Shown here piece by piece: positions 7,641 to 51,273 of a stretch of 64,000 nucleotides of DNA (position 1 is the stretch's first letter; each line of letters opens with the position of its first letter). Source of the stretch: a virus (lineage: Duplodnaviria; Caudoviricetes); IMG/VR virus record IMGVR_UViG_3300014968_000001, positions 1-64,000 of that record; one strand, written 5' to 3'. A program made the position numbers and the translations under genes. The notes beneath the pieces are model-generated. The model did no database searches, was not told the origin of the DNA, and worked only from the letters and a program-made list of their open reading frames with translations.

Positions 7641-7658
7641 AGCAACCAATAAAATTAC

Positions 7659-9306: not shown

Positions 9307-9324
9307 AATGAGTGATGAGTGGGG

Positions 9325-9519: not shown

Positions 9520-9527
9520 TCAGAGAT

Positions 9528-10517: not shown

Positions 10518-10518
10518 A

Positions 10519-11770: not shown

Positions 11771-11774
11771 ACAA

Positions 11775-13430: not shown

Positions 13431-13437
13431 AATGAGT

Positions 13438-28607: not shown

Positions 28608-28931
28608 ATGATGCCGTTTTTGAAACTGACTCCGGCAGTGGCACACAGGATTTGGATGCGTTCGCCATTTGCGAATTGGTGGATTAAGAAATGGATAGAC
28701 ACTCCCATTACGCCCGAGACTTCTCCGTTCTGGTTTGAGTCTATGTATCCGATGTTCCTAAGAGACGATGATGGGAACATGGTAAAATTGGACTATTCAC
28801 CGAAATTCAAGAAATGGTTGGAGTTTTGCGTTACGAAATACCAGCCGTCGCCAAACGAATCTGAGTCTCTATCCGGCTCAAGCAACAATCCCCGCCAATC
28901 GCCGGACTGCCATCGGTCGCTTGGATGGTAA
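28608..28931 (+). CDS. Hypothetical protein overlapping the nozzle 3' end by ~100 nt
   Basis: MMPFLKLTP..; convergent overlap with 28831..30687. Confidence 0.5.
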   Translation: MMPFLKLTPAVAHRIWMRSPFANWWIKKWIDTPITPETSPFWFESMYPMFLRDDDGNMVKLDYSPKFKKWLEFCVTKYQPSPNESESLSGSSNNPRQSPDCHRSLGW

Positions 28932-30687
28932 TTTCAAAGTAGATGAACCGGCCCGATTGCAGCATCGGCCATTCAAACGGCGGGATCGGTTTCAACAGCG
29001 CCGCCGCCAGTTGTGGTGAAGTTTGTGTTGAATTACACGCCATCGGCTTGTCCGGTTGCGGATACCACAACACGGAACACACGCCATCCGGAAGGTTCGG
29101 GTCGGCTTCACTCTCCGATGTGCCAATCCGCAGGTGAACCACGTTGTTGATGGACGAATCTGACGGGGTGCATTCCAGCAGAAAATTGCGGATGAACTTT
29201 TCCCGGTCATAATTCTGCAAAGGCAACAACGCCCGCAGGATACGGTAATACCCTTCATACGAGTATTGGCCGGTGAACGGGATGTATTTGCCATCCACGG
29301 TCGTTCCTTTGCCCGTGGCTGCGTTGGTGCAAATCGCGCGCGAGAACACATTCCCGATTTCCTTCAGGCACAGGTCAGGGCAACCGGCGCCGAGAAAGAG
29401 TTGCGCGGATTGGCAGGCTTCGGGATCGGCGGTGGACGGACGGAAATTGACGAACGCGGAAAACCCGTAATCCAGCACGTCCGGCGATTTGTATTGGTAG
29501 TCGAAGATGAACGTTGAGGAATTGACACAGCCACCGTCGCCGTTCGCCGCCGCTTGAGGCCATGACAACCAGATTTCGGTGGTGTCCGGATGCAGTATCA
29601 TTACAGGACTTTGGCAGCAGGACGGGTCGAGGGCGGTCAGGTTATCGTTAAACACCATCGCAGAACCCCGATACAACCATTCGGTGCGTTCAGGTTCGGG
29701 GATGTACGGACTGAAAAAGTAGATGCCATCCGAGCCGCAATACCAGCAGGAATTTCCGGCGGAAACCAGCGTGTTCGGATAGGCAAGGCATTTGTTCTGG
29801 TTCAACGGTTCGGAATAGACTTTGGCAAAGCTGAACGTGGGCGATCCCGATTGAGTGCTGTTATTGACGAAGATGACCCAGATGGCTTGCGTGGTGAACA
29901 CGTAAAGGCTCCCGGCCATCGGTATGGCGTTGAGGATGCGTTCGCCGTAATCTAGGTCTTGGAATCCCGCGAGCGTAGAGTTGCCCGAGCAATCCATTGT
30001 GCCAGGTGCATCCTGCCAGCTTAAAGGGCAGTTGATGGACGACCAGCGGATTCGGCTGGAAATGCGTTTGCCGCCTTCCACGAGGTCCATCAGGAAGATG
30101 AATCCGTTCCATGACACCGTGACACCCGCCTTGGTGACTTGCATCGTAACGAGGTCAGGGATGGTCGAGGCGGCATTGGAACCTATGTTGGTGTGATGCG
30201 GGGGATCGACGTTATTGGTGAACACCAGTTCATTTTGCAGGAGCGACATGCGGAACCGCGTCTGGGGCAGGGACGTTTCGGGAGTGCCACCGAGATTGGT
30301 GATAACGGTCTGCCAATAACCGCTCACGGTGTTGAGGTATTTTATCCAGCTTTGAGAACCGGCATAGAGGGTGGTGTTGCCGGTGTTATCGAGGGCGGAA
30401 AAGAGCAGGGTGATGAATTCACGACCGGCGGTGGAGGGAACGTCGAATTGATCGTGAAGATCGAAATTACTATAAGCCGGTGGTATCAGAGAACCATTGA
30501 CGAACGAGGCGAAGGCGCGGTCGAAGTTGGGGCGGATGCACAATTTATTCCCGCCGCGCAGTTGCCAGTTCTGTTTGAATCTCCATGCGCCGAGCGGGAC
30601 ATCTTCGACTTCGCTGCGCGTATCCAAAACGCCAGTCAAAGGGCGAATGCTCACAGTCTGCCACGTCTCACCGCGTCGTCGTGCCAT
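28831..30687 (-). CDS. Tail nozzle / DNA-stabilisation protein (P22 gp10/T7 gp12-like)
   Basis: 618 aa, beta-rich; RIRWSSIN, IWLSWP..IFDY, GRFIYFEIT; structural context. Confidence 0.65.
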   Translation of the reverse strand: MARRRGETWQTVSIRPLTGVLDTRSEVEDVPLGAWRFKQNWQLRGGNKLCIRPNFDRAFASFVNGSLIPPAYSNFDLHDQFDVPSTAGREFITLLFSALDNTGNTTLYAGSQSWIKYLNTVSGYWQTVITNLGGTPETSLPQTRFRMSLLQNELVFTNNVDPPHHTNIGSNAASTIPDLVTMQVTKAGVTVSWNGFIFLMDLVEGGKRISSRIRWSSINCPLSWQDAPGTMDCSGNSTLAGFQDLDYGERILNAIPMAGSLYVFTTQAIWVIFVNNSTQSGSPTFSFAKVYSEPLNQNKCLAYPNTLVSAGNSCWYCGSDGIYFFSPYIPEPERTEWLYRGSAMVFNDNLTALDPSCCQSPVMILHPDTTEIWLSWPQAAANGDGGCVNSSTFIFDYQYKSPDVLDYGFSAFVNFRPSTADPEACQSAQLFLGAGCPDLCLKEIGNVFSRAICTNAATGKGTTVDGKYIPFTGQYSYEGYYRILRALLPLQNYDREKFIRNFLLECTPSDSSINNVVHLRIGTSESEADPNLPDGVCSVLWYPQPDKPMACNSTQTSPQLAAALLKPIPPFEWPMLQSGRFIYFEITIQATDGSPAIGGDCCLSRIETQIRLATAGIS

Positions 30688-30690
30688 AAA

Positions 30691-31611
30691 TTATGGGCAA
30701 GATAGCCCGAAATGGGAAAGATACCATTCAAAACTGCGAACGAAAATCGACTGGTTATAGGCCCGTTCGGAAAGCAGGGTGTTCCATTCCGCGTTGACCT
30801 GGCGTTTTGACAGCGTCAAATCCTCGGAATTTTGCAGCGTGGCGATGAGGGCGGCAGCGCGTTCCCGAGGTAAACAGGTGTGGGCGAGCGCGAGCTTATT
30901 GAAAGTAACCTTCCACTGGTCAGTCTTATACGTCGTGGACTGACGAAACTGATGCCCGATCCTTACGGTTTTCAGCATCCGAATATCCCCACCCGCCAGC
31001 CACCATTTGAGCGACAAAAACGGCTCGTCCAAACCCCACCCCTTCAAAAGCTTCAACCCGCCAACGTGAAAATAAAAGTCAGTCGGCATGACGTAACCAG
31101 CGCCCATGATGCAGGACAACGGGTAATCATCTTCGCCAGGCCGTTCCTTCGCCCATTTGCCTTCGAGCGTCTGCATCCTGCCGCCGTCGTTTTGGTCAGG
31201 GCCGTAAAAGTGAATGTAAGCCCCGTGATAATCGCCGCGCGCCTGAGACATGTCCATCATCCCCGGAACGAGTTGAACGCACAGCAGGTTATGCAGGGTC
31301 GTTGGTCGGTCTTTGATGCGATCCATCAAGGTTTCGTACCAGCCGTTTTCAAAGCGTACATGGCTGTCGGTGAGCAGAAGAAAATCTCCCGTGGCGCGCA
31401 ATGCACCAATGTGCCGAGAGGCGGCGACCCCGGCCCTTTCATCATTGCGGATAAGATGGCACTTTTTGTCCTCCAAAGAGAGCGGGACTTGGCTCGCATC
31501 ATCTATGACAATTACCTCCGGTTTGTCGCCAGCGGTGTCGCGGATGCTTTTGATGGTGGCTTGGCATTCCAAATAGTCGTTGAGGCAGGGTATGATGATG
31601 CTGAGTCTCAT
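30691..31611 (-). CDS. GT-A glycosyltransferase resembling polypeptide GalNAc transferases (GT27-like)
   Basis: IVIDDAS, GVAASRHIGA..GDFLLLTDSH..GW, WGLDEPFLSLKWWLAGG, IGHQFR. Confidence 0.85.
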   Translation of the reverse strand: MRLSIIIPCLNDYLECQATIKSIRDTAGDKPEVIVIDDASQVPLSLEDKKCHLIRNDERAGVAASRHIGALRATGDFLLLTDSHVRFENGWYETLMDRIKDRPTTLHNLLCVQLVPGMMDMSQARGDYHGAYIHFYGPDQNDGGRMQTLEGKWAKERPGEDDYPLSCIMGAGYVMPTDFYFHVGGLKLLKGWGLDEPFLSLKWWLAGGDIRMLKTVRIGHQFRQSTTYKTDQWKVTFNKLALAHTCLPRERAAALIATLQNSEDLTLSKRQVNAEWNTLLSERAYNQSIFVRSFEWYLSHFGLSCP

Positions 31612-31916
31612 TTAATTTCTCCGTTGGTAATGAATCCGTGCCATTCGTTGTATTTTGAGAAATCAAGCGAGGGAGTCAATGTGAGAGTTTCAAATGTGTC
31701 ACCAGTGCGTTGCCAACGGTGCATCCCACCATAAAGTTCTGGATTGTCCGCAGGGTCGGATAACCAGCCAAGATTGAGAGGGTCAATCGGGTTTTTGAAA
31801 AGGCATCCAAGATGCTGTCCGGTGCCCAACGGCGACAGGAACGAAACCCCAACAACAAGTTTATTCCACGGCTGGCCATAGCCAAGCCACGAAGGTTCAA
31901 GGTAGGTCAGTCTCAC
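31608..31916 (-). CDS. Hypothetical protein (DUF6527-like)
   Basis: WQRTGDTFETLTLTPSL..WHGFITNGE. Confidence 0.65.
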   Translation of the reverse strand: MRLTYLEPSWLGYGQPWNKLVVGVSFLSPLGTGQHLGCLFKNPIDPLNLGWLSDPADNPELYGGMHRWQRTGDTFETLTLTPSLDFSKYNEWHGFITNGEIK

Positions 31917-33430
31917 AACGGTAATGGTGTATACCCACTCTCCCCCGGTTTGCCAACATTCATTCCTTCGGTCGGTCGAATCAGTTCATCGACGCATTCG
32001 CTGGAAACCAAGTAGCTCGCGGCGTCGTAAACGTGCTTTAGCGGGCTAAGTTTATTAATGGCAATGTTGCCCTTCCCCTTTTTGATGCCCTGAAAGGATT
32101 CAATGAGATGGGGGCATTTCGAGCGTGAGATGAAGATGCGATTCTCGAAGAACAGACGTTTCAACAGGTCAACCCGTTGGCCGACCGACCCAGGGCCTTT
32201 GTTGACGGCGGTGAGTATAATCTTGCCGCCGCTTTCCTGACGGATGAACTCATGCGGCAGGATGGCCGACATGCTGCCTTGAACATCGAACACATTTCGG
32301 TCAGACCAATTCCGCCACATTAACGGATGGCCGCAGTGTTCCTCCCAAAACTCGATTTTCTCAAGCACCTCAGCGACGAAATCTGAAAACAGAATCTTTT
32401 CCCCGACATAAACCACTTCATCCAGGAATTTGAAAATACTGATGGGTTTGGCGGAGCGTTCAATCGTGATCTTCTCAGCGATGACCATTGCATGATTTAC
32501 GTCGCCGGGGTCCCAGCCCGTTATCAGTTCGGAACAATTTTCTTCGGGGATGAGGCAGTCTGGTTCGGGATTGGAACGGGTTTCCGGGTCGCCGACGATA
32601 TGCACGTTGGGACGAAACTGTTCGTGGAACACGGAATTTCCGGATGCCTTCACCCATTTACCGTAATAATAGCGAGCCAACAAATCTTCGGAATGTTCGT
32701 ACTTGGCTTTTTGGGACAGGTGCCACGATTCATCTTTGAAAATGTTGTCCGATACGTTGAACTCCATCAACGCAAGGCATTCGGCGAACATCGCCATGCC
32801 CTTGTTATCGCCCCAGTCCAGAACTCGGTCTTCATACCACAGCTTCCAAATCCACGAATCTGTGCCTTCCTCGGACGGATTAGTGTCGCCAATGAAGATG
32901 TGCTGCCATTCCTGCCATTGACCGCGTAGACATTCCCGCCAGCAATCGAAGGTTGCGCGGCTTTTGTAATTGGACAATTCGGACACGTAAATGCCACTAT
33001 ACGACTTACCTTTGAACCGTTCCTCGACATCATCCTCGTGCTTGAGGGAATCCAGGTGAACGCGCGACATCGTGCCGTATTTGTTTTTTACCTCACAATA
33101 CAGCTTCTTGGTCGTGCCCTTCTGGCGCGGCGTGGTGATCCATTCCATGCCGAAATCGCCCCCGATCCATTCAGGGAGCGTCTTTTCGGTCAGTTCAGTC
33201 CACATACCGGAATCATCGCCGGCGGTGACGGTAGGGCAGACCACGGCGAACCGGGCGTCTTTCACTTCCCACAGGTGTTCGGCGATGGCGGCCATGCAAC
33301 CCGTGGACTTGGTGGACATGCGCGGTCCACTGACGAGGATGTATTTCTTGGGGTTTTCGGGGAAGCGATGGCACAGGCGGAGCAACTCCATCTGCCTGGG
33401 GCTTAATGAGGGATGGAACGGGTCTGACAT
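31913..33430 (-). CDS. terL: Terminase large subunit
   Basis: LSPRQ, GPRMSTKS, IYVSEL, IGDTNP, nuclease GWDPG..SD..HVYDAASY; start at MSDPF after a promoter. Confidence 0.88.
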   Translation of the reverse strand: MSDPFHPSLSPRQMELLRLCHRFPENPKKYILVSGPRMSTKSTGCMAAIAEHLWEVKDARFAVVCPTVTAGDDSGMWTELTEKTLPEWIGGDFGMEWITTPRQKGTTKKLYCEVKNKYGTMSRVHLDSLKHEDDVEERFKGKSYSGIYVSELSNYKSRATFDCWRECLRGQWQEWQHIFIGDTNPSEEGTDSWIWKLWYEDRVLDWGDNKGMAMFAECLALMEFNVSDNIFKDESWHLSQKAKYEHSEDLLARYYYGKWVKASGNSVFHEQFRPNVHIVGDPETRSNPEPDCLIPEENCSELITGWDPGDVNHAMVIAEKITIERSAKPISIFKFLDEVVYVGEKILFSDFVAEVLEKIEFWEEHCGHPLMWRNWSDRNVFDVQGSMSAILPHEFIRQESGGKIILTAVNKGPGSVGQRVDLLKRLFFENRIFISRSKCPHLIESFQGIKKGKGNIAINKLSPLKHVYDAASYLVSSECVDELIRPTEGMNVGKPGESGYTPLPL

Positions 33431-33437
33431 TTTGTTC

Positions 33438-33472
33438 TTGCCAGTACTACCTAAAAGTCTTAGATGATGCAA
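33438..33472. promoter_or_regulatory. Interdigitated divergent promoters (terL/nozzle operon vs portal/capsid operon)
   Basis: Plus: TTGCCA-17-TAGATG (33438-33466); minus: TTGCAT-17-TAGTAC (33472-33444). Confidence 0.55.
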
Positions 33473-33530
33473 TAACAGAGTCACCAAACAATCCAAGGCG
33501 ACTCGAACAATGTTTGAAAAGGCTAACTTT

Positions 33531-33878
33531 ATGGCAAACAAACCGTACCAACCGATGAACGATCCCGCCGATGGTGAAACCGACGCCCCCGATAGCGGCG
33601 AATCCCCGGCACAAGTGACGCTGGACAAGAGCAACCCTGACATTGCCGAGGCGTTCGCCGAGTGCAAGGAAGGCGACATGTACAAGGTCGTCAAGGATGA
33701 CGAGAACGAGATTGTTTTGGAGAAACAGCCGGACATGGCGGCAGGCGGCGAGGAAGAAAACGCCGGGGAAAACATGAACGAAGGCGGTCAGGAGGAATCC
33801 GGCGGCGAGGATGATGGCAGTTTCAAATCCGACAAGCCGGGGATTGCGCTGTTGATCGCCAAGAAGCGGAAGCAGTAA
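33531..33878 (+). CDS. Small acidic protein with basic C-terminus
   Basis: D/E-rich; ends PGIALLIAKKRKQ; first gene of the head operon. Confidence 0.75.
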   Translation: MANKPYQPMNDPADGETDAPDSGESPAQVTLDKSNPDIAEAFAECKEGDMYKVVKDDENEIVLEKQPDMAAGGEEENAGENMNEGGQEESGGEDDGSFKSDKPGIALLIAKKRKQ

Positions 33879-33883
33879 TTTTG

Positions 33884-33962
33884 TCCTGCGAGTGGTGGTG
33901 AAAAGGCGTGAGCCTACTAGGACGCTGGATTGCTTGAGAACATCCCACCACCACTCGCAGGA
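33884..33962. ncRNA. Long hairpin with internal GTGA-tetraloop stem (element B)
   Basis: Perfect 17-bp IR tcctgcgagtggtggtg/caccaccactcgcagga enclosing aggc-gtga-gcct. Confidence 0.6.
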
Positions 33963-33979
33963 TTTATAGAAAACTTAAA

Positions 33980-34153
33980 ATGAATATTTTTTTATCATTG
34001 ATATTGGTTGCGTGCTTGACCGGCGGATGTGCGGCCTATTCTAAAACCGGAAAAGCGTTTCCAGACAGTTTTAACCTCACCGATTATCACGTTCTCGGCA
34101 CTCAATTCAAAGGCGACACTGTTGCTGCCGGATTTAGTTGGACTCTCAAATAA
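33980..34153 (+). CDS. 57-aa putative lipoprotein (not in ORF track)
   Basis: MNIFLSLILVACLTGGC (lipobox-like Cys17); ends AAGFSWTLK; stop 1 nt before the next ATG. Confidence 0.65.
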   Translation: MNIFLSLILVACLTGGCAAYSKTGKAFPDSFNLTDYHVLGTQFKGDTVAAGFSWTLK

Positions 34154-34154
34154 A

Positions 34155-34589
34155 ATGAACGGCACTCCATTAATTCTCGCCATCATCGGCCACCTAGTTG
34201 GGGACTATCTACTTCAAAATGACTGGATGGCTACGAACAAAAAGAAGCATTCGTTTCCATGTGCGGTTCATTGCCTTCTGTGGACTTGCTCGGTGATGTT
34301 TTTCGCTGGCTGGATGTGGATTGAAAAGCCTCACTTTTTATGGATCAAACCTTGGGTGTTTTCAGCATTGTTTTTAACACACTTTATCCAAGATCGAACG
34401 CAAATTATAATCTGGTGGATGAAGTTGAAGTGGAAAGACCAAAGCAAATTCATGGAGTGTGACTCACTCCTGTTAAAACACGAATACGAACCCACTATTA
34501 AGGTTGGACTGGGGCCGTGGTCAATCATCGTCGTGGATAACGTGTGGCACATCGTTGAAATTTGGGCCGTTTGGAGGTTTCTCACTTAA
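34155..34589 (+). CDS. DUF3307-like membrane protein
   Basis: IIGHLVGDYLLQ, HCLLW, THFIQD, DNVWH. Confidence 0.8.
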   Translation: MNGTPLILAIIGHLVGDYLLQNDWMATNKKKHSFPCAVHCLLWTCSVMFFAGWMWIEKPHFLWIKPWVFSALFLTHFIQDRTQIIIWWMKLKWKDQSKFMECDSLLLKHEYEPTIKVGLGPWSIIVVDNVWHIVEIWAVWRFLT

Positions 34590-36958
34590 TGCCCGTCTCC
34601 CCAAAAGTTCTCAAAGCGCATGGCTGCACACCGGCTGATTGGAAGCCTCTGTTCACCGCCAAAGGCAATTACAGCGGGAAATCCAAGTCCGGCAAGTTGC
34701 CGCAGATAAAGCGGCTGGAAACACTCATCGCCAATCGCATCAATGACGGTCGGTTGAAGAACCTCCAGGATTACCGCGTGTTCGCCGCCATCGACATGGC
34801 GTATGACGCTCCGTTCGATCAGACCACACCGACACTCATTCAAAGTTTTCTCGGTCAGGACTGGTCAAATCTCAAGCAGGAAGATGTGCTGGCGAAATTG
34901 CAGCAATGGGGGTTGAAGCCCGATGACCTCCTGCTGAAAACCACCCGCCCGGATGGCAGTTGTGTTTACACGCCGAACCCGCCGACGTTCTACAAAATTC
35001 TCGTTCCGTTGGTGAAAGCGTATGTCACCATTCGCCGCGGAAAACTGTTTAATGACCGTAACAAAGTCCCGTTGCTCGATTATGAGCCGATTGAATGGAA
35101 TTCCGAGACGCGGATTTTGTGTGAGATTTTAAATCACACGGTCCAAGTCATCAGTGGCGAGTTGGGGTATCCGCGCGACCTTGACCAGACCATTCTGCAA
35201 ACTCTGCAATACGCCACCACACTGGTGTTCCCCCGCGAAGTTTGGTACACGGAATATCAGATGGAGATGGTGGATGGCAAAGAAAAGAAGGTGCTCCAAA
35301 AGGAAGGCATCCGTTATTGCCAACCGCACCCGACCCGCATGTTTTGGGATCAGCATTATAGCATCTCAAGTTTCAATACGGATTCCGGGTGCGAATTTGC
35401 GGGTTATTGGAAAGTGGTTTCTTACGGCGACATTCTCGACAACCAAAATTATTGGAATCGCAAGGCGGTGGGTTTCGGCAGCACGGTGGATTGGTTTAGC
35501 CCTGAAATCAGCAGTAATTTTTTCAGTGAAGTTTACCCGTGCCAGATGGCGTTCCCCAATTTCACGTACGGCGAAAAGAGCAGCCGTGAATCGTCGGCGA
35601 TTTATTACGCAACCAGTCAACGGGACATGGCGGTGTTCCAGACCGACGTGTTTATGAAGCTCACGCCGGCGAAGTGGAAGCTCGGCACCTATAAGTATCC
35701 GATTTGGGTGCGGTTCATCGTCGCCAATGACAACTCGATTTTGTATGCGGAGCCAGTTGCCTATTCTCCCGTCCTGTTTTGCGGGTATGACACCGACCAG
35801 TTACGGGCCAAGAACGCCAGCATGGCGCTGGAAGTATTGCCGTTTCAGGATCACATCGGCAACACGCTGTCCCAGATTGTCCTGACCATCAAACAAAACC
35901 TGGCGAACATTTATTTTTACGAGAAGAACGTGTTGAACCGCGAGGACATAGACGCGGTGAAGAACGCGGGTGAGATGCAGTATCGCACCATCAACATGGT
36001 GCCGTACGACAGTTTCAAGAATGCGCGCGCAGGTCTGGACGTGAAGGGAGGCATCATACCGGTTCATTTTGATTACAAGGACGTGACGCCGATGTTCCAG
36101 TCCATGAACACGATGTTGTCCATGCTGGAACGGTTGCTGCAACTGAGCGCGCAGGAGAGCGGAGCGGCGGCGAGCCATCAGCAGAGCAAGGAAGAAATTC
36201 AGGTCATCAGCGGGAACACGTCCAACCGCGTGCAATTCACCGGGTCATTCATCGACGACTTCATTGACGCATGGAAACGGCAGCAGTACGACGCGATTCA
36301 GGCGTATGCAGATGATGAACTGACGGCGATGGTCCCGGGAGATATTCCCGACATCGAAGAACATTTGGAAGCGTTGGGATTCAAGAAGTCCGGCACGGTG
36401 CAGGGCGAAGGCAAATTGATTGTCAAAGGCAGCAAGCGCGGATTGCTGAAACTCCAGGATTTTGCGGTGACAGGCAAAGGGCCCGACCGAAAGAACGACA
36501 CGCAAACCGCCCAGATAATGATGCAGGCAGCGCAGGCGGTGTCGAACAGTCAGGTTCTCGCGCAAGCCATCGGCGCCAAACCGTTGCTCAAGATTATTGA
36601 GCGGGCCGCAATTATGGCCGGGGCCGACAAAGATTTCAAACTGCGACCGGACGACAAGGCGCAGGCGAATGCCTTGCAGCAGATGGCGCAGGAAATCATG
36701 CAGGCGATGATGAAGAAGGTGAATGAAACTGTCACTAAGCCTGCCGCCGAAGAAATGAAGAAGATTCAGGATGAAATTGTCCAGTTACAACAGGTCGTGG
36801 CGAAGGCATTGAAATTGCAACCGCCCGATCCCCGGAATGTCCCGGTGCAGTCGCCAGCACAACCGCAACCTCAACCCCCAACACCCGATGCTCAAGTTCA
36901 GCCGCAACCCGCTCCCGGAAGTGGAGAACCAGGAACTCCGCAAGCTCCCGTCGCATAA
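34589..36958 (+). CDS. Portal protein (podovirus type)
   Basis: ~790 aa, precedes scaffold and capsid; Gln/Pro-rich barrel-like C-terminus. Confidence 0.75.
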   Translation: MPVSPKVLKAHGCTPADWKPLFTAKGNYSGKSKSGKLPQIKRLETLIANRINDGRLKNLQDYRVFAAIDMAYDAPFDQTTPTLIQSFLGQDWSNLKQEDVLAKLQQWGLKPDDLLLKTTRPDGSCVYTPNPPTFYKILVPLVKAYVTIRRGKLFNDRNKVPLLDYEPIEWNSETRILCEILNHTVQVISGELGYPRDLDQTILQTLQYATTLVFPREVWYTEYQMEMVDGKEKKVLQKEGIRYCQPHPTRMFWDQHYSISSFNTDSGCEFAGYWKVVSYGDILDNQNYWNRKAVGFGSTVDWFSPEISSNFFSEVYPCQMAFPNFTYGEKSSRESSAIYYATSQRDMAVFQTDVFMKLTPAKWKLGTYKYPIWVRFIVANDNSILYAEPVAYSPVLFCGYDTDQLRAKNASMALEVLPFQDHIGNTLSQIVLTIKQNLANIYFYEKNVLNREDIDAVKNAGEMQYRTINMVPYDSFKNARAGLDVKGGIIPVHFDYKDVTPMFQSMNTMLSMLERLLQLSAQESGAAASHQQSKEEIQVISGNTSNRVQFTGSFIDDFIDAWKRQQYDAIQAYADDELTAMVPGDIPDIEEHLEALGFKKSGTVQGEGKLIVKGSKRGLLKLQDFAVTGKGPDRKNDTQTAQIMMQAAQAVSNSQVLAQAIGAKPLLKIIERAAIMAGADKDFKLRPDDKAQANALQQMAQEIMQAMMKKVNETVTKPAAEEMKKIQDEIVQLQQVVAKALKLQPPDPRNVPVQSPAQPQPQPPTPDAQVQPQPAPGSGEPGTPQAPVA

Positions 36959-37184
36959 CGGTTATCAACTGTTGAAGCGGGTCATTGCCGCGCGCGCCGA
37001 CGAGAATGCCGTGGAATCGGCAAACGCGATTCTGGCCGCAGCGAAGTTTGAGTCGATGAACGCAAAGGCGTTAAAGACTGCGGATGACGCGGGGCGCTAC
37101 CAGAACGCTTTGGACGTACTAAAAGAGTTAGAGTCGGAAATGAATCACTACACCGGCGACATCGCCAGCAACCTCAACCCATAA
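36888..37184 (+). CDS. Small helical protein downstream of portal
   Basis: MLKFSRNPL..; conserved position between portal and scaffold. Confidence 0.55.
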   Translation: MLKFSRNPLPEVENQELRKLPSHNGYQLLKRVIAARADENAVESANAILAAAKFESMNAKALKTADDAGRYQNALDVLKELESEMNHYTGDIASNLNP

Positions 37185-37191
37185 AAACATC

Positions 37192-38655
37192 ATGGCAACC
37201 GAACCACAAAAAACAGAAGAACAATTGGCCGCAGAAAAAACGGCGGCAGACACAGAGGCAATCAAGACCAACGCAGATGGCATCGACCAATTTCTTGGGG
37301 AAATCCTCCAAAAAGAAACGCCGGACGAGAAGGCGGCGAAAGCCAAGGCGGACGCGGCGGCAAAAACGGCCAAAGAAGGGGAGAAATCCGAGTTGCAGCG
37401 CAAGGCGGATTTGGCGAAGGAGCGGAAGGAAAAGGCCAAGCAGGAACGGGAAGCCAAAGCGAAGGAAATCGCCAGCAAACCCATTGATGCCGATGCCATC
37501 GCCGAAGCGGCAGCGCGGGGCACGGTGAGCGCCCTCGAAAAAAGCCGGGAAGAAGCGGCACGCAAGGCGGCGGAGGATGCTGAGAAGGGTAAAGGCGATC
37601 AATATTCCCATTTGGACGAGGATCAAAAGGCGGATTTGCCGATCCTGCAACAGATGGAGAAGGCCAACCCGACGAAATACAAGGGATTGTCCGATAAATA
37701 CGCCAAGAGCGTCAAAGCCCTGGCGGAATATCGTGAGGCGTGGGAAAAGGCCAACCCGGACAAGGAATTCAACGGGGAAGACGACGAACACAACGAATTT
37801 TTCGCCAAGAACGAAGTCGGCTGGAAAGACCGGGATTACGCCGAAGCCATCGCGGACCTGAAATTGGAGAAGATGCAGGCCAATCTCAAGCAGGAGAACG
37901 ACAAAGCCATCGGCGAACTCAAAGGCAAGGAACGTGCGCGCGAATTGGAGCCGTTGGCCGTCACCGAGGCGAAGCGAGGGGCGCGGGAATTGTTCAAATC
38001 GCTCGGGGGCGAGTTTGAAAAGGTCGTGGACGAGAACGGATTGGTCAACGGTGAGGCGGTGAAGAAACTGCACGCCGAAGATGACCGTGCTGGAATGGCG
38101 TTCGCCGCGGCAACTCACCTTGAAAACCTGTGCGCGGAGAATTATCGCCTGTTCAACGGCATCAAACCATTCGACGCGAATAATCCGGTTCACAAACAAC
38201 TGGCGGATTACGCCTTGGCGCAGGAGACAGATATGTTGAATCTGCCGCCGCAAGACCAGATTGATGACAAGGGCAGGCAATTCGCTCCGAACGCTGATTA
38301 TTGGAAGATGACCAAGGCGCAGCGCGAACGGCATTGGACGTTTAATATGACAGATTTGAACACGCTTTTGGCGGCGGATGTGGCCACAAATCTCAAAAAT
38401 CAGATAACCGCGCGAGAGAAGGAGATGTCTGCTTGGGCGGAAAAACGCGGATATAAACGCGCCGCAGGCGACGGCGAACCGGAACGCAAGAATGGTGAGG
38501 AACACCACGAGGAACAGGGCAAGGAAGAAGAAGTCGAGCAAGTGGAAAAGCCGAGGGCGGTGACATCCATTCCCGACTCACAGGTGGCGCAGTATCGAAC
38601 GGCGAAATTAACCGGAAAACAAAATGGCGTGAGCCGCTTCTTTTCTGACTTCTGA
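37192..38655 (+). CDS. Capsid scaffolding protein
   Basis: E/K/A-rich coiled coil directly before the capsid gene. Confidence 0.75.
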   Translation: MATEPQKTEEQLAAEKTAADTEAIKTNADGIDQFLGEILQKETPDEKAAKAKADAAAKTAKEGEKSELQRKADLAKERKEKAKQEREAKAKEIASKPIDADAIAEAAARGTVSALEKSREEAARKAAEDAEKGKGDQYSHLDEDQKADLPILQQMEKANPTKYKGLSDKYAKSVKALAEYREAWEKANPDKEFNGEDDEHNEFFAKNEVGWKDRDYAEAIADLKLEKMQANLKQENDKAIGELKGKERARELEPLAVTEAKRGARELFKSLGGEFEKVVDENGLVNGEAVKKLHAEDDRAGMAFAAATHLENLCAENYRLFNGIKPFDANNPVHKQLADYALAQETDMLNLPPQDQIDDKGRQFAPNADYWKMTKAQRERHWTFNMTDLNTLLAADVATNLKNQITAREKEMSAWAEKRGYKRAAGDGEPERKNGEEHHEEQGKEEEVEQVEKPRAVTSIPDSQVAQYRTAKLTGKQNGVSRFFSDF

Positions 38656-38710
38656 TGTCGCAAAGTAGTTTGAGCGCACGGGAACCATAAAGGTTCCCCG
38701 CGAACAAACT

Positions 38711-40645
38711 ATGGCGAATACGACGAATAACAATCTGCTCCTGGCACCGAACGCATTCTCGAAGTGCGCCCCGAACCTTTCCACCAACATCAAGCAATGC
38801 GGCACGGTGACGTTGTGCAACGCCATCCCCATGACGCCTGCCGACCTGAGTACCGCGTTCACGTCCGGCGGCAATTATCGCGTGATGTCGTCCCTGCTGA
38901 AGCACGACATGGAAATCAAGATGTGCTCGGCCAAGCAGAATGGCCTGTACGACTTCCTGATGGCCAACAAGGTGTCGATGGGCCACAAAATCCGCACGGA
39001 GAAAATCAATTCCGGCCTTATCCGCATCGCCCCCTACGTTCTCGCCCGTCAGTACACGAACATCAACAACGAATACTGGCAGGTATCCAACGGCGCGACC
39101 AACGGCGCCTACTGGCAGGTCGATGTTACCAGCCCGACTGGGATTCCGGCCAATGAACGCTCTTTCGGTCCCGGCAATCGCGTGTTCATCGACGGTGTGA
39201 CCGGCGGCGGCACGGCTACCCACACGGAATGGCTGATTATTTCCTCGACTGTCACCGGCAACACGGTGGTCCTGATTTTGCAGGCGGCGCAAGCCGGTTC
39301 CTACCTGGCGGCTTCCAGTTTGACCAGCCCGACGGTCGGCATTATGACCCGCGGCACGGCGAACGTAAACGATTACGAGAAGTATTGCGATGAGCCGGCG
39401 GCTTACCTGAACTGGAACAACGTTCCGTTCTGGACGGAAACGATGCGAACCACGGTTTGCACGTCCGAACAATATCAGCTCTGGCGCAAGCTTCTGCTGG
39501 CCGACAACCCGCTCTACGCTGAATACGGCGACCTCGACGAGATCGAGAAGAACCGCCAGTTGGGTGCCGATTGGCAGAAGCGCATGGTGGCTCAGATGTT
39601 CTGGGGTAAGGCGACCAATGCCAACCAGACCCTCGCGCTCTATCCGAACCTGCCGCAAATCGAAACCTATCCGGGTGGAAATTTCGACGTTGGCGGCGCG
39701 CAATGCGTCGGTGTTCGCGCCGACATGATCGGGCTTTACGAGCAGATGGCGCAATGCGGTCGGATCGTTGACCTGCAAGGCGCGGCGCTGAACCTGATTT
39801 CCCTGTTCAATGCGCTCTATCAGATGATGCGCGTGCGGGAAGGTTCCACGGGTCAAAACGTTAAGTCGTTCGATTTGTTCACGGACAATCAGACCGCCGA
39901 AGCCATCAATTACGCGATGGTGACGCAGTATTACCAGAGCAAGAGCAACAACCAGTTGCGCTTGAACTACGACGTGAACGCCAGCGGGAATGCTCCGCAA
40001 TCGGCCAATTTCGGGTTCAACTTCCGGTCTTACAACCTGTTCTACCCGAACGTGCGTATCAATGTCGTGACGCATTATTACTTTGACGATTACGTGACCG
40101 CGCAGGCGGCAGTCGGAAACAACAACGGACGCTTCCTGTGGTGCCTGGATTTCACGGGCATCTATCCCGGCATCATGGCGACCAACCGCAAGGTGCTGAA
40201 CACGGGCGACCTCAAGACGCTCGCGGCGATTGATTCCTCATGGGGCTGCGTCATGGAAGTGTTCACCAAACAGACCACGGCGACGAGTGTTACCGGGACG
40301 ATGGTGGTGGAATGTCCGGCGGCGAACCTGATGATCGAAAACTTCCCGTTGACCGGCATCATCGGCAGCAATGTGTCGCCGAACCCGACCACGCCGCCCG
40401 TGTATCCGCCGTCGGCGACCAGCACGACCACGACGACCACCTTGGGCACGTTGTATTACAATACGCTTCAATCGTTCACGGCGACGTGTCCGGTGGGTTA
40501 CGAGGGTGCTCCGGTGACTGTGAGCAGCGCGGCGAATTCGTTTGTGTCGAGCATCTCGCAGGCGGACGCCAATGCGAAAGCGTTGAGCGCGGCGACCTTG
40601 GCAGCGCAACAGCAATTGGTCTGCACGCCAATCAATAATCCGTAA
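38711..40645 (+). CDS. Major capsid protein with Thr/Pro linker and C-terminal DUF5977-type module
   Basis: Follows scaffold, followed by a terminator; tail SPNPTTPPVYPPSATSTTTTTT then YYNTLQSFTATC..SISQADANAKA..LVC. Confidence 0.8.
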   Translation: MANTTNNNLLLAPNAFSKCAPNLSTNIKQCGTVTLCNAIPMTPADLSTAFTSGGNYRVMSSLLKHDMEIKMCSAKQNGLYDFLMANKVSMGHKIRTEKINSGLIRIAPYVLARQYTNINNEYWQVSNGATNGAYWQVDVTSPTGIPANERSFGPGNRVFIDGVTGGGTATHTEWLIISSTVTGNTVVLILQAAQAGSYLAASSLTSPTVGIMTRGTANVNDYEKYCDEPAAYLNWNNVPFWTETMRTTVCTSEQYQLWRKLLLADNPLYAEYGDLDEIEKNRQLGADWQKRMVAQMFWGKATNANQTLALYPNLPQIETYPGGNFDVGGAQCVGVRADMIGLYEQMAQCGRIVDLQGAALNLISLFNALYQMMRVREGSTGQNVKSFDLFTDNQTAEAINYAMVTQYYQSKSNNQLRLNYDVNASGNAPQSANFGFNFRSYNLFYPNVRINVVTHYYFDDYVTAQAAVGNNNGRFLWCLDFTGIYPGIMATNRKVLNTGDLKTLAAIDSSWGCVMEVFTKQTTATSVTGTMVVECPAANLMIENFPLTGIIGSNVSPNPTTPPVYPPSATSTTTTTTLGTLYYNTLQSFTATCPVGYEGAPVTVSSAANSFVSSISQADANAKALSAATLAAQQQLVCTPINNP

Positions 40646-41378: not shown

Positions 41379-43085
41379 ATGGCCACAGTTTACACATTTG
41401 GCGACCTGCAAACGGAGCTTAAGCAGAGTTTGTTTCCGACCGGATTGCCTGTCAATTTGGTCGTTCCAGTTCGCCTGATGTTCGTCGAGGCCATGTTGGA
41501 TTTGCAGAAGTTCGTCGAGTGCCTGCAAATCAATAACGTCCAAGTCATTCCTCAATGCAATACCTTCTTCAAATGCGGGTACACCGTGACCGATGCTCCG
41601 AGGGGAAGAATCACAAGGGTGTACACCATCGACAAAATCAATCAGGAAACGGGATTGGAAGACCCGACCGTGGCTTTGGATTGGTGTTCAGTGGTGGAAT
41701 TGAGGCAGGCGAATTACGATGACCTTGACCGTTACGTTTCCACGACTTTGGCGGGATCGTTGGGGGAAGGATTCTGGCCGTGGCTGATTGGTTTTGGATT
41801 GCAGGGCGTCGTGGCATTTCCCTCGACGTGCCTGAACTGGTGGTATGACAAATACGCTTACCCGCCACCCGATGATACGCCGTTCGCCAAGTCGCCACCG
41901 TTGCCGTTGGGTTTTCATTACCCGCAATCCGCCACCGACAATCCTGCTGGCCGTTCGCAATGGGGTTTGTGGGCGTTGAAAGGTGGTCAGATATACGTGG
42001 CGCCGTGGATTCAAAGCACGGAGACGCTGGTGATAGAATGGAACGGGCTGAAGCGGGATTGGCAGGACTCGGACCTCGTGGACAACGATCCGATGTTGAA
42101 ACAGGCGGTTGAAGCGTATGTGTCCAAGGAATACGCCCGGAAGTACGACCGGGATTACGATGCCGAAGCGTCATTCGCGGCAAGGTTCAATGAAGCCCGG
42201 GCGATTTTGATGGATGAATGCCGGCGCGAGACGGAAATCAGGGATTCAGGCGAAGGCGCGGCGGCGCGCGGAGCGGCGTTGATAGTGCCGACGTTCGTGA
42301 ATGACGCGCAGACAGCCACGGCGCAATGCCCTACTGGCACTACCGGAGCATCCGTGAGTTACACCGTGCCTCAAGGATTCGTGGTTTCAACGGTGTCAGT
42401 TGCCGATGCCAACGCGCGCGCTCTAAGCCTTGCATTGCAGACGGCGGGTCAGCAATTGACTTGCACGGTTACGCCACCCACATTTTTCAATACGCCACAG
42501 AGTTTCACGGCCAATTGCGGCACGGGCACTGGCAGCCCTGTGACAGTGAACATCGCCGCCGGTCAATTCTCGTCCATTATCAGTCAAGCCGATGCTGACG
42601 CTCAGGCTTTAGCAGCGGCGACGGCAGCGGCGGAATCGCAGATACATTGTACGTTCTTGAATACGCAGCAGCAATATACAGCCACATGCCCACAGGGAAC
42701 CACCGGAACACCAGTGACCAAGACCGTTGCGGCAGGGGCCTACACGTCTACTATTTCGCAGAGTGATGCCGATCAGAAGGCGTTGACCGATGCCACGAAT
42801 CAGGCGAATGCCGCGTTGACGTGCAATGTGCCGCCAACGGTGTTTTGGAACACGGAACAAACCGTTACCAATAACCGTGTGTGTTTTGGCCGGGTTGGCT
42901 GCACGCCAAAGACGTTTACGGAGAGTTATACCGTTCCTGCGCATACCATTTCATCAATCGGCTCTCAAGGTGCGGCAAACCTGGCGGCGATAAATTTGGG
43001 GCAAAACATTGTGAACTCGCTGCTGAGTGCTGACTGCGCTAATTATGCGGTCACATGCTCAGGCGGCCCGGGAGGTGGATTGTGA
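41379..43085 (+). CDS. Head-tail adaptor-like protein with four DUF5977-type repeats
   Basis: TFGDLQTELK N-terminus typical of adaptors; four N..Q..TA.C..S.ISQADA..A..C units from ~42290. Confidence 0.7.
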   Translation: MATVYTFGDLQTELKQSLFPTGLPVNLVVPVRLMFVEAMLDLQKFVECLQINNVQVIPQCNTFFKCGYTVTDAPRGRITRVYTIDKINQETGLEDPTVALDWCSVVELRQANYDDLDRYVSTTLAGSLGEGFWPWLIGFGLQGVVAFPSTCLNWWYDKYAYPPPDDTPFAKSPPLPLGFHYPQSATDNPAGRSQWGLWALKGGQIYVAPWIQSTETLVIEWNGLKRDWQDSDLVDNDPMLKQAVEAYVSKEYARKYDRDYDAEASFAARFNEARAILMDECRRETEIRDSGEGAAARGAALIVPTFVNDAQTATAQCPTGTTGASVSYTVPQGFVVSTVSVADANARALSLALQTAGQQLTCTVTPPTFFNTPQSFTANCGTGTGSPVTVNIAAGQFSSIISQADADAQALAAATAAAESQIHCTFLNTQQQYTATCPQGTTGTPVTKTVAAGAYTSTISQSDADQKALTDATNQANAALTCNVPPTVFWNTEQTVTNNRVCFGRVGCTPKTFTESYTVPAHTISSIGSQGAANLAAINLGQNIVNSLLSADCANYAVTCSGGPGGGL

Positions 43086-45880
43086 GCAATTTTCCCAACA
43101 TCATCAACACGCCGTGCATACCCACGACGCCGCCGCCGCCAGACCCGCGTTGTGCTGACAAGGCGTTCGCCCTGGCAAATCCCGGAATTTGTTCCACGAC
43201 GCCGGTTCTGATTCTCAAGCCGGGTGTGCTGCTGACGTGCGCCCTTGGTTCGGTGCAGTTCAAAACCTTCCTCGATTTGGCAGGTGTCGAAACCGAGGTG
43301 AAGGATGGCGTCGTATATTCCTCGTCGAATTCGACGGTGGCGCTCATCGGCGCAAGCACGGGGAACGCCACGGGCATTGCTTCGGGTGAAGTCACCATTT
43401 CAGCCACGTATCAGGGACAGACCGCCACAGCGTCACTGACGGTCATTGGAAACGCCAGCGGGGGCGGTTGCTGCGGTGGAACCACCGTGGCGACCATGCT
43501 CGTGGTGGACGTGAGTAAATCCATGTCGCTCAATTTCGGTAGTGGTTTTGCCACCAAACTGGACTACGCAAAGTCAGTTGCCACCACTTACGCGAATCAG
43601 ACGAATACCCAGAAGGACGTTATCGGTCTGGTATCGTTCGATTCCACGGCAACCACGGTGGTTACTCCAACGAGCAACATCGCCAGTGTCACCGCAGCGA
43701 TTGCAGGACTGACGAATCAACCGAGCAAGACTAGCATTGGGATTGCGTTGCAGGCTGCGATAGATGCTTTGGCCGCGGTCACGGCTGACATAAAGGTGAT
43801 CGTCCTGATTTCAGACGGTGAAAATGAGGACACGGATGCTGCGAATGATCCCATCACCATCTCCGAAGGTTGGCAGTCGCCGGAAAGCGTGGTCATTTGT
43901 TTTGGCGTCCGGGCATCTGCCACAGCCAACGGATTCAATTTGCTCAACGGACTGGCGACAGGGGGCTTCTTCGTCAATTCATACCCGTCAATTGCCGCAA
44001 CTGCTCCGGTCACGCTCGACGGATTGAAGGGATATATCTGCGCCGGCAATTGCACGCCGCCAGGGAACATCTACGAGGCAGAAGGGGCGCTGAATTACAC
44101 TGGGTTTGCCAATTGGAACGTCACGTACGGCGAAGTGGATTTGTTTGGCAACGGTTTCTTCGATGTCCTGCCGGGGAACGGGCTGTATGTGAACATGAGT
44201 TCCATCCTCGTGCCTGCCGGAATCAAGAGCAAGTTGACCAGCAAAACGGCATTCAATTTTGTCACCGGCAAGACGTATCGGTTGAGCATTTCCGTGGCTG
44301 GAAATCAGACCGTGGCGGGAACATTCGGGTTGGCGGTGGCAATTACCAATGGAGTCCTGAACCAGACCGTCACCATCACGGATTACACGCAGGATTTTAA
44401 TTCTTATTCGTTCAACTTCACCGTGCCAGCGAATGTCAGTGGCAACATCACCCTGAACGAGTCGTCGAATCTGGACAATGTTCTGATTGATAATGTCGCG
44501 CTGATTGATGTGACGGATTTGGTGACGATGTTCTCGGACAATTTCGATACCGAGAACATTCAGTATGTGCCGCCTGCTTGCGGGGTGGGAAATCAATATG
44601 TCGTGATTGGCCGGGACACGACGCGGGTTGTTTTGTCGGGAGGCGGATTTTCGGACGGAAACCAAACCTACACGAAATCTTCTGATACGATTTACGGTGG
44701 CGACGGGGGCGTTTCCATCCTATTCGTTTCGGTGGACAACGCATGGGAAGTCACAGACATGTTCGCGGTGGTGCATTACACATGCAGTCCGGCAAACTTC
44801 CCGGTCGGCCCGTGGAATGTAATTAATGGCGAGCCTCCCGGTCCGACAGGGGCGTACCTGCCGATGTACGGTTACGCATACGGCTACAATTGCTACGGGT
44901 ACGGTTGTCTCGACACGCCGCCAGGGGATCAGTTGCCCGACCCGAATCCGTTGCCCGACATTGAGGCTGGATTTGTCCCGCCAATACCATACACGACCAC
45001 CCAGAGCGTTACGGTCTATTGCCCGCAAGGAACGGTTCAGGACGATGGTGGGAACACCGGCGCGACGGGCACTGCGACATACACGAGCTACATTTCGATG
45101 CAGGACGCCATCAACAATGCGCTGGCTCTGGCGACCGCGAATGCCAACGCGAATCTTGGGGCGATAGGTTGCAAGACTCAATACACGTCCACCCAGACTT
45201 ATACCGCGACGTGTCCAGTCGGTCAATTTGGGCCACCTGTGACCAAGAGCGCGACGGCGACCAGCTTCTTATCTCAGGCCGATGCAGACGCACAAGCTTT
45301 GGCGGCGGCGACAACAGCAGCTAATGCGGCGCTGTCCTGCAACGGATCGAACAACAACCTTCCCATAACAGCCATTGGCCCTTCGACCGGCGGGGCGACA
45401 CCGTATCCGAGTGTTCAAGCGGTCAGTGGAATGACTGGGCTGATTACCAAAGTCACGGTCAACATCAATCAGTTCATTCACGCATATTGCACACAAGTTT
45501 GTGTGATGCTGCGCAGTCCTTCGGGCAGAACTGCCGTGATATTTTCCGGCATGGGTGGGCCGCATGTGTTGCTCACCCCAATCAATTTGGTATTCGATGA
45601 TTCAGCGGGTGGCGTGCTTCCGGATTTCAACACGCCAACGGCAGGAACGTATCGCTGCTCGCCATACGACATTGCGGCAGTGCCGAATACTGACCCCTCC
45701 ACTCCGTACACGCAGATAGCCTATTGGCCCGCCCCCGCACCACAGCCGAATTACGGATTAAATCTCGCAACTTTTATTGGTGATAATCCGAACGGTTCTT
45801 GGAGCCTTTGGGTCGCCTCAGCCTTGAATCGGGACACCGGTTCCATCGGTTCTTGGTCGGTGAATATTACCTCCGCATAA
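43082..45880 (+). CDS. Multi-domain virion adhesin: Ig-like, vWA, CBM/DUF642-like, 2x DUF5977, proprotein-convertase P-domain
   Basis: YSSSNSTVA..GEVTISATY (Ig); VVDVSKSM..TSIG..ISDGE (MIDAS); NGSWSLWV..DTGSIGSWSV (P-domain); GTG start. Confidence 0.8.
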   Translation: MSNFPNIINTPCIPTTPPPPDPRCADKAFALANPGICSTTPVLILKPGVLLTCALGSVQFKTFLDLAGVETEVKDGVVYSSSNSTVALIGASTGNATGIASGEVTISATYQGQTATASLTVIGNASGGGCCGGTTVATMLVVDVSKSMSLNFGSGFATKLDYAKSVATTYANQTNTQKDVIGLVSFDSTATTVVTPTSNIASVTAAIAGLTNQPSKTSIGIALQAAIDALAAVTADIKVIVLISDGENEDTDAANDPITISEGWQSPESVVICFGVRASATANGFNLLNGLATGGFFVNSYPSIAATAPVTLDGLKGYICAGNCTPPGNIYEAEGALNYTGFANWNVTYGEVDLFGNGFFDVLPGNGLYVNMSSILVPAGIKSKLTSKTAFNFVTGKTYRLSISVAGNQTVAGTFGLAVAITNGVLNQTVTITDYTQDFNSYSFNFTVPANVSGNITLNESSNLDNVLIDNVALIDVTDLVTMFSDNFDTENIQYVPPACGVGNQYVVIGRDTTRVVLSGGGFSDGNQTYTKSSDTIYGGDGGVSILFVSVDNAWEVTDMFAVVHYTCSPANFPVGPWNVINGEPPGPTGAYLPMYGYAYGYNCYGYGCLDTPPGDQLPDPNPLPDIEAGFVPPIPYTTTQSVTVYCPQGTVQDDGGNTGATGTATYTSYISMQDAINNALALATANANANLGAIGCKTQYTSTQTYTATCPVGQFGPPVTKSATATSFLSQADADAQALAAATTAANAALSCNGSNNNLPITAIGPSTGGATPYPSVQAVSGMTGLITKVTVNINQFIHAYCTQVCVMLRSPSGRTAVIFSGMGGPHVLLTPINLVFDDSAGGVLPDFNTPTAGTYRCSPYDIAAVPNTDPSTPYTQIAYWPAPAPQPNYGLNLATFIGDNPNGSWSLWVASALNRDTGSIGSWSVNITSA

Positions 45881-51091: not shown

Positions 51092-51273
51092 GCATCCACA
51101 TTACTAAAAATAGAATCAGGGCTACGGGCGCGGATGCCAATGCGTTGCTTATCTCAATGGCTCCCGACGAGCAGCTTTTGAAATGGGATAAAGAAAAGTT
51201 TGGCTCTGATGATTTTCAACGAATTGTAAAAGAGGCAATGGCGAAACGCCGCCTTGTTCACCCGCAACAATGA
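51088..51273 (+). CDS. Small hypothetical protein
   Basis: 61 aa; ATGA-coupled both sides. Confidence 0.55.
   Translation: MSIHITKNRIRATGADANALLISMAPDEQLLKWDKEKFGSDDFQRIVKEAMAKRRLVHPQQ

Follow-up and report, generated by a model that had tools for sequence, protein, structure and literature searches.

The Caudoviricetes record IMGVR_UViG_3300014968_000001 represents a complete phage genome of 72,495 bp with direct terminal repeats, of which the first 64 kb (positions 1 to 64,000, in the following referred to as the window) were analyzed here. We describe a candidate system for the O-glycosylation of virion proteins that is encoded in this window and comprises a glycosyltransferase (GT) related to the polypeptide N-acetylgalactosaminyltransferases (ppGalNAc-Ts) of family GT27, a major capsid protein with a threonine-rich C-terminal segment and a cluster of further GT and methyltransferase genes (Table 1). 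The enzyme shares the catalytic motifs and the fold of GT27, the HK97-fold capsid protein carries a tail that is conserved among its homologs, and tail and GT genes are distributed together across related genomes. Our broader conclusion, a glycosylation of poly-Thr segments on virion proteins by the cluster, we hold to be likely with some assurance. The more specific reading, in which priming of the capsid tail falls to the GT27-like enzyme and chain extension to the cluster, appears probable to us, with more reserve. It had been put forward in an earlier note on the same DNA and is supported by our computational analysis: of the three outcomes that the note had named as speaking against it, two were examined, namely closest structural matches to GT2 enzymes with sugar or lipid acceptors and relatives that keep the enzyme without Thr-rich tails, and neither was found.

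A phage enzyme with the fold of GT27 peptide glycosyltransferases

The GT27-like gene encodes a protein of 306 amino acids (aa). All motifs by which this protein had previously been likened to ppGalNAc-Ts were recovered in its translation, namely DDAS (residues 37–40), DSH (residues 82–84), WGLDEPFLSLKWWLAGG (residues 192–208) and GHQFR (residues 219–223), and D37, D38, D82, H84, E196, G219 and H220 are invariant in 32 homologs. When the single sequence was compared to the PDB with phmmer, the best 16 matches were all ppGalNAc-Ts (top E 2e-13), and the alignment to GalNAc-T2 pairs DSH with DSH and WGLDE...GHQFR with WGGEN...GHVFR. A profile built from the 32 homologs retrieved GT27 chains from the PDB with E-values of 2e-30 to 4e-21, followed by chondroitin synthase as the next family with an E-value of 7.5e-10 and in the N-terminal half only. 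Pfam likewise recognizes a generic GT2 domain in the N-terminal half only, the matches to PHROGs are marginal (E ~0.005) and those to NCBIfam are restricted to sub-threshold N-terminal GT2 matches. We take D82, H84 and H220 to correspond to the Mn-binding triad of GT27 and propose that the metal site of the phage enzyme is formed by D82 and H84 of the DxH motif together with H220 of GHQFR.

The AlphaFold model of the enzyme reached a predicted local distance difference test score (pLDDT) of 95.9. Employed as a query in Foldseek, it returned GT27 ppGalNAc-Ts as all of the best ~50 matches. An exhaustive comparison by VIA-align against 48,161 representative chains gave Z-scores of 29.1 and 28.1 for GT27, with a root-mean-square deviation (rmsd) of 2.5–2.6 Å over 277–281 of the 306 residues, and a Z-score of 18.6 for the next family. 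Foldseek, VIA-align and the PDB profile search thus agree that the closest structures are peptide-acceptor GT27 enzymes and not GT2 enzymes acting on sugars or lipids. The reported absence of a lectin domain also proved correct, as the 306 residues align solely with the catalytic domain of mouse GalNAc-T1 (chain residues 116–425). The last residue of the phage protein, 306, corresponds to the end of the GT27 catalytic domain, and no lectin domain was detected in 10 longer relatives that were scanned. At its N-terminus, strand beta-1 is formed by residues 3–9 without a preceding leader, stem or membrane anchor. Since neither a lectin domain nor a membrane anchor is present, the enzyme is a soluble, presumably cytoplasmic GT27-like catalytic domain and falls short of full membership in the eukaryotic family. 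That the protein begins at beta-1 without a leader fits a cytoplasmic action on assembling virion proteins.

A conserved poly-Thr capsid tail is distributed with the glycosyltransferase genes

The candidate acceptor is the 644-aa major capsid protein. Its identity as a capsid protein was confirmed by Foldseek, since the best matches of its model are all phage capsid proteins of the HK97 fold, headed by those of Vibrio phage VP1 (E 1.8e-15) and phicrAss001 (E 8e-13). The earlier note had called attention to an in-frame linker, SPNPTTPPVYPPSATSTTTTTT, which indeed makes up residues 556–577 of the capsid protein and includes the Thr run (tail YPPSATSTTTTTT). The pLDDT falls below 50 at residues 556–559 and 569–579, which suggests a flexible segment, and the threonines of the run are encoded by a mixture of ACC and ACG codons, so that the run is no simple DNA repeat. 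The linker is followed by a DUF5977 module.

The capsid family comprises at least 188 homologs, of which 177 distinct ones were scored for the tail. A Ser/Thr run of 4–12 residues (median 7) after an invariant Tyr was found in 129 of the 177, usually in the form YP..TTTTTTT, and in 109 of these 129 tail-bearing homologs it lies no more than 8 residues from the C-terminus. As DUF5977 is present on the capsid protein of only about one sixth of the homologs, the conserved feature is the C-terminal poly-Thr tail and not the linker. The Thr-rich capsid segment proposed as acceptor therefore stands, while the term linker understated it: the linker in the window reads as the local form of a family-wide C-terminal Y(P)..T(n) tail, to which DUF5977 is added in a minority of the family. 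No credible gene of the window other than that of the capsid protein, with this tail, encodes a strong Ser/Thr/Pro segment. A Ser/Thr-rich C-terminal part of the capsid subunit is hence present, and it is a candidate for the acceptor role.

To compare the occurrence of tail and GT genes, 80 IMG/VR loci around capsid homologs were taken, the enzyme profile was run against 50 whole records and the 766-aa GT of the cluster was searched in the 20 longer ones of these and in the genome of the window; the following co-occurrence counts refer to IMG/VR records that are at least 60% complete. The GT27-like gene and the 766-aa GT were both present in nine of nine tail-bearing genomes (G000, G005, G007, G009, G011, G012, G015, G019 and G020), and either gene was found in none of 11 tail-less genomes (Fisher p 6e-6, uncorrected for phylogeny). 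A single large clade of the capsid tree holds the tail-bearing sequences, and a tail-less group (L053, L054, P0143 and P0146) is nested inside it with node support of 0.92–0.997. The L054 genome, which is 88% complete, contains neither the GT27-like gene nor the 766-aa GT. For this group of phages, designated lineage A, a single gain and a single joint loss can thus be counted, and both the counts and the nested double loss show that the enzyme is not kept without Thr-rich tails. By way of comparison, 852 kb of lineage-A loci without the enzyme contained no open reading frame (ORF) with runs of at least 7 Ser/Thr (at least 5 Thr). Four loci (L002, L017, L023 and L024) had appeared to keep the enzyme without a tail when a strict Ser/Thr/Pro threshold was applied; this was rejected, as short C-terminal Thr runs are present in nearly all of the 120 homologs inspected. 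Two more capsid sequences are tail-less or have a weak tail: the contig of P0130 stops 2 kb beyond the capsid gene, and for P0076 no GT2 is listed within 9 kb downstream.

The pairing of enzyme and poly-Thr segments is also seen outside lineage A. Searching with the enzyme yielded 36 IMG/VR loci with relatives, among them crAss-like contigs of 93–102 kb (lineage B). Here the GT27-like domain retains DAH and GHLYR and takes the third place in a fusion of three glycosyltransferase domains (GT32-like, GT2, GT27-like; L026:4875-10957, L029–L033 and L123–L129). The fusion directly follows a homolog of tail hub protein B, in which three poly-Thr linkers join the domains, and a poly-Thr ORF of 216 aa. 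For comparison, 32 lineage B relatives were fetched using the downstream gene as an anchor. All seven genomes with the GT27-like domain possess 1–5 poly-Thr segments in the tail module, and none of the 25 genomes without the domain has poly-Thr runs in tail-module proteins; the sole segment among these 25 lies in an unrelated ORF of 2169 aa and is a weak run of mixed Ser and Thr. No full-length enzyme match was detected anywhere in the 25 records, three of which show a generic GT2 N-terminal match only, and they include close relatives from the same sample that lack both the domain and poly-Thr. Three further lineages (L028, L034 and L036) carry poly-Thr ORFs within 10 kb of the enzyme gene. 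In relatives, poly-Thr segments are found on tail proteins as well, namely in the homologs of the 568-aa protein in L009, L020 and L023.

Two features of these additional loci may be mentioned separately. In L036, a 227-aa ORF with about 80 consecutive threonines (L036:7619-8302) is located 1.5 kb upstream of a divergent enzyme relative. Another divergent family member (L034:9992-10975) has G-S-D at the position of the DxH motif, and its metal site may be altered or lost.

Proposed mechanism and competing explanations

The further GTs that had been assigned to a cluster at 46–61 kb are indeed there, with GT and methyltransferase genes located at 48–61 kb: between ~46.8 and 61 kb the window encodes three GT2-domain proteins, a TylF-type O-methyltransferase and three further methyltransferase domains, and the genome holds at least three GT2-domain proteins in addition to the GT27-like enzyme. 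We propose that this phage-encoded system would O-glycosylate the phage's own virion proteins in the cytoplasm of the host. The GT27-like enzyme would take a nucleotide sugar, most likely UDP-linked N-acetylhexosamine (UDP-HexNAc) or UDP-hexose (UDP, uridine diphosphate), bind the metal via D82, H84 and H220 and transfer the first sugar to threonines in the YP..TTTTTT tail, the flexible C-terminus of the capsid protein. In relatives, the poly-Thr linkers of DUF5977 and tail proteins would be modified by it as well. The GTs and O-methyltransferases encoded at 46–61 kb would then extend and methylate the chain. Each capsid subunit would finally bear a short mucin-like glycan brush, here with the DUF5977 module beyond it. 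The enzyme is assigned the role of the primer because of its homology to GT27 and because it recurs with different partner enzymes in other lineages.

Several considerations weigh against this proposal. The sugar transfer itself, the priming by the GT27-like enzyme, the roles of the other enzymes and the exposure of the tail on the virion surface are steps that we infer, and an outward orientation of the capsid C-terminus is assumed. The enzyme is only ~20% identical to GT27 enzymes, a level at which donor and acceptor specificity are not readable from homology, and it has neither the lectin domain nor the membrane anchor that true ppGalNAc-Ts possess. The capsid tail could be modified by enzymes of the host instead. 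The number of independent events is small, with one gain and one documented double loss in lineage A and one gain in lineage B, whose seven genomes are closely related and stem from a single sample. As lineage B and the other additional lineages were found with the enzyme as query, they are subject to ascertainment bias, and L028, L034 and L036 come without negative controls. Most seriously, the 766-aa GT has a distribution identical to that of the GT27-like gene; since the whole GT cluster, examined through this GT, tracks the tail, the priming role cannot be assigned to the GT27-like enzyme from distribution alone.

The last point leads to an arrangement in which the cluster does glycosylate poly-Thr tails, and another enzyme of the cluster or of the host primes them, with the GT27-like enzyme extending the chain or acting on another site or protein. 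Apart from the exact match to the 766-aa GT, the position of the GT27-like gene, merely the last gene of the cluster in most relatives, would agree with such a division of labor, as would the fact that specificity is not inferable at this level of identity. We nevertheless regard it as improbable, since the nearest characterized relatives of the enzyme all prime peptides and are set off from sugar-acceptor families by a gap of 10 Z-score units. Moreover, it is the sole GT of the window with a BLAST-detectable homolog in the crAss-like and other poly-Thr loci, which were found with this enzyme, and its bacterial relatives are fused to peptide-binding LanC-like domains. It is also conceivable that the acceptor is no protein at all and that the GTs act on phage DNA or on a glycan or lipid of the host envelope, with the co-distribution arising from shared ancestry or host niche. 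According to PMC12619734, phage GTs are best known for DNA glucosylation and serotype conversion, GT-A enzymes switch acceptors readily, and few independent events underlie the correlation. DNA glycosylation is disfavored because no thymidylate-synthase-like (ThyA-like) hydroxymethylase was found in the complete genome and because the genes are located in the structural module, while modification of the host envelope is a poor fit for a soluble enzyme without a membrane segment that was lost jointly with the capsid tail. The joint loss concerned tail and cluster in a nested sub-lineage, and the pairing arose again in an unrelated crAss-like lineage with same-sample relatives that have neither of the two. 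Taken together, a non-protein acceptor seems quite improbable to us.

A very improbable explanation, in our assessment, is that the capsid tail is an unmodified spacer or entropic bristle, which in the window would tether DUF5977, and that the enzymes glycosylate only other virion proteins such as the DUF5977/VWA tail proteins or fibers. It draws on the poly-Thr segments of the tail proteins in L009, L020 and L023 and of the crAss-like tail hub protein. In the window, however, the capsid tail stands alone as a strong Ser/Thr/Pro segment in a credible gene, it is the capsid tail that tracks the enzyme genes across lineage A, and a run of 4–12 threonines right at the C-terminus, beyond which most homologs have nothing that it could tether, is hard to explain as a spacer.

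Gene context, wider family and known systems

The gene order around the enzyme was compared to its previous description, according to which it lies between the terminase and the nozzle gene. The terminase side is correct, with a DUF6527 ORF intervening, whereas nozzle is no more than a putative designation, the sole match of the protein on the other side being PHROG 3287, annotated as virion structural protein. This protein was considered as an acceptor, as its gene comes after the enzyme gene in ~24 of the 36 loci, and was rejected: it has no Thr run, and its gene belongs to the core of the lineage and was found in 20 of 21 genomes, among them every genome that lacks the enzyme. Since PHROG-3287 is found whatever the tail state, its adjacency to the enzyme gene is positional. 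A separate location of the enzyme gene from the other GTs, as claimed before, applies to the window, L001 and L002 and not to most relatives, in which it is the last gene of the GT cluster and the cluster is located between the VWA tail protein and the PHROG-3287 gene. In the sub-lineage of the window, the enzyme/PHROG-3287 pair has been relocated beside the terminase and onto the opposite strand compared to L003–L025, and the pair is intact after this rearrangement.

The head/tail module on the plus strand begins with proteins of 798 and 487 aa, after which the capsid protein is encoded. The genome holds six DUF5977 modules: the 568-aa protein has four of them, and the capsid protein and the VWA/P-domain protein have one each. 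DUF5977 gave no match in 14 control genomes and may be an adhesion or display module. The motif PTTPPPP, which had been placed at the start of a protein at 43082, was found to be residues 23–29 of the ORF beginning at 43055, that is near the N-terminus and not at it. A 2889-aa ORF with homologs in the related contigs L016 and L022 may be a virion-associated giant protein, for example an RNA polymerase of the crAss/N4 type. The replication module encodes a DnaB-like helicase, an ORF resembling a C5 cytosine methylase fragment, an SNF2 helicase, an SbcC-like ATPase, a PDDEXK nuclease and a HerA-like ATPase. The labels non-actinobacterial and podovirus, given to the phage earlier, are plausible.

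Table 1. Features of the window relevant to the proposed glycosylation system and its surroundings
Feature	Position	Strand	Remarks
GT27-like GT-A glycosyltransferase	30691-31611	-	306 aa; soluble, no lectin domain; assigned by motifs, profile and fold
PHROG-3287 virion structural protein	28831-30687	-	directly downstream of the GT27-like gene; context only
Small DUF6527 ORF	31608-31916	-	between terminase and GT27-like gene
Large terminase	31913-33775	-	upstream of the GT27-like gene
Major capsid protein, HK97 fold	38711-40645	+	644 aa; candidate acceptor; assigned by Foldseek
Pro/Thr linker of the capsid protein	40376-40441	+	residues 556-577; proposed O-glycosylation site
DUF5977 module of the capsid protein	40454-40612	+	after the linker; predicted to fold separately, pLDDT ~93
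568-aa protein	41379-43085	+	four DUF5977 copies, three exceeding the Pfam cut-off
DUF5977 modules of the 568-aa protein	42306-43019	+	
Big_2/VWA/DUF5977/P-domain protein	43055-45880	+	
DUF5977 module of the VWA/P-domain protein	45188-45340	+	
TylF-type (sugar) O-methyltransferase	48361-48888	+	proposed role in glycan tailoring
766-aa tri-domain glycosyltransferase	51270-53570	+	GT2 domain and weak GT9-like match; proposed role in glycan extension
GT2-domain protein	53803-54462	+	weak Pfam match below the curated cut-off
Two class-I methyltransferase-domain ORFs	55322-55783, 55780-56337	+	
GT2-domain protein	56932-57792	+	homologs adjoin the GT27-like gene in L016, L021 and L022
Methyltransf_24/TylF-like methyltransferase	60068-60580	+	
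Replication module	976-13508		
2889-aa ORF	16389-25058		

The enzyme belongs to a wide family, of which 955 clusters were found at E ≤1e-30 when 1.84 billion representatives were searched exhaustively with HMMER; many of them are fused to further GT domains. In a bacterial subgroup (E ~1e-70; P0272, P0276, P0279, P0286, P0295 and P0298), a LanC-like domain is attached at the C-terminus. LanC-like domains bind peptides, and their presence lends indirect support to a peptide acceptor for the enzyme family. The neighborhoods of these fusions (context L122) contain lanthipeptide dehydratase and cyclase genes, small ORFs and radical-SAM genes; the fusions may represent an undescribed class of glycosyltransferases acting on ribosomally synthesized and post-translationally modified peptides (RiPPs). 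The best-scoring profile relatives, P0169 and P0170 (643 and 741 aa), possess an extra N-terminal domain with weak similarity to PF11397, the Pfam model (GlcNAc) for the GT60 family of cytoplasmic protein glycosyltransferases. Among 50,697 genomes of isolated phages, no relative of the capsid protein was detected, and the enzyme gave two weak, partial matches (27–35% identity, E ~1e-4). A pattern-limited scan of 185,579 species genomes revealed one real relative, on a contig of a Bacteroidia metagenome-assembled genome (28% identity).

We found no prior description of GT27 or a ppGalNAc-T in phages in the literature, and what is specific to the present case is the capsid protein as candidate acceptor together with the genome-level evidence for gain and loss. 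The lineage is widespread and uncultured, with more than 230 capsid relatives in IMG/VR and ~130 distinct capsid sequences with the tail, and it appears to coat every capsid subunit via a conserved poly-Thr tail by means of the type of enzyme that initiates mucin glycosylation in animals and protists. If this is true, the phages would offer enzymology and glyco-engineering a GT27-like enzyme that is minimal, soluble and free of a lectin domain and whose short acceptor motif, YP..T(n), is defined. It would also bear on the origin of mucin-type O-glycosylation, and it would suggest glycan coats on phage heads, with possible effects on shielding, adhesion to mucus or particles and colloidal stability, as an overlooked trait of environmental phages. 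A much wider generalization, which we find doubtful, would be that lectin-less GT27-type peptide O-glycosyltransferases form a large family of prokaryotic viruses and bacteria that writes mucin-like Thr-O-glycan brushes on phage capsids and tails and works with LanC-like domains on bacterial peptides. Dense capsid glycan coats would then be common in environmental phages, and this pool of enzymes would be the prokaryotic sister or source of the eukaryotic mucin-type initiators.

When compared to the GT27 ppGalNAc-Ts, exemplified by human GalNAc-T2, mouse GalNAc-T1 (8V9Q) and Toxoplasma GalNAc-T3 (8UHV), the whole phage enzyme superposes on the catalytic domain and shares the DxH motif, the WG(G/x)(E/D) loop and the histidine of GHxFR. 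The presumed acceptor is alike as well, a Thr-rich, Pro-flanked unstructured peptide. The phage enzyme differs in its ~20% identity, in the lack of a ricin-type lectin domain, stem and anchor, and in being viral and presumably cytoplasmic and not a Golgi enzyme. Simple or soluble DxH-type relatives of GT27 that glycosylate Thr or hydroxyproline, some of them in the cytoplasm, are known from family GT60, the polypeptide alpha-GlcNAc-transferases (Gnt1 of Dictyostelium and Toxoplasma, OGNT of trypanosomes). The phage enzyme is likewise lectin-less and presumably cytoplasmic, whereas PF11397 gives no match to it at E ≤0.01 and is weakly matched only by the N-terminal domains of P0169 and P0170; no GT60 entry was recognizable among the PDB matches listed by Foldseek and VIA-align. 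Glycocin and other RiPP glycosyltransferases such as the GT2 enzyme SunS are bacterial GT-A enzymes that act on peptides, and the bacterial relatives of the phage enzyme, with their LanC-like domains, sit in RiPP-like loci. SunS reaches a Z-score of 12.7 against 29 for GT27, and the candidate acceptor here is the tail of a structural protein and not a leader-guided peptide.

To our knowledge, mycobacteriophages are the only phages in which a glycosylation of virions by enzymes of their own has been demonstrated. According to Freeman et al. 2023 (Cell Host Microbe), as cited in PMC12619734 and PMC13445384, Che8 and other mycobacteriophages carry O-linked glycans at the C-termini of capsid and tail-tube proteins, which are made by phage glycosyltransferases. 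Both systems have in common phage-encoded GTs, the C-terminus of the capsid protein and, as proposed for our phage, a coat on every subunit. Our phage belongs to another lineage, with a 72.5-kb genome and a capsid protein most similar to those of Vibrio phage VP1 and crAss001, its enzyme is GT27-like and its tailoring cluster is larger and includes TylF-type methyltransferases. The system resembles the virion glycosylation of mycobacteriophages and differs from it in phage lineage and apparently in enzyme family.

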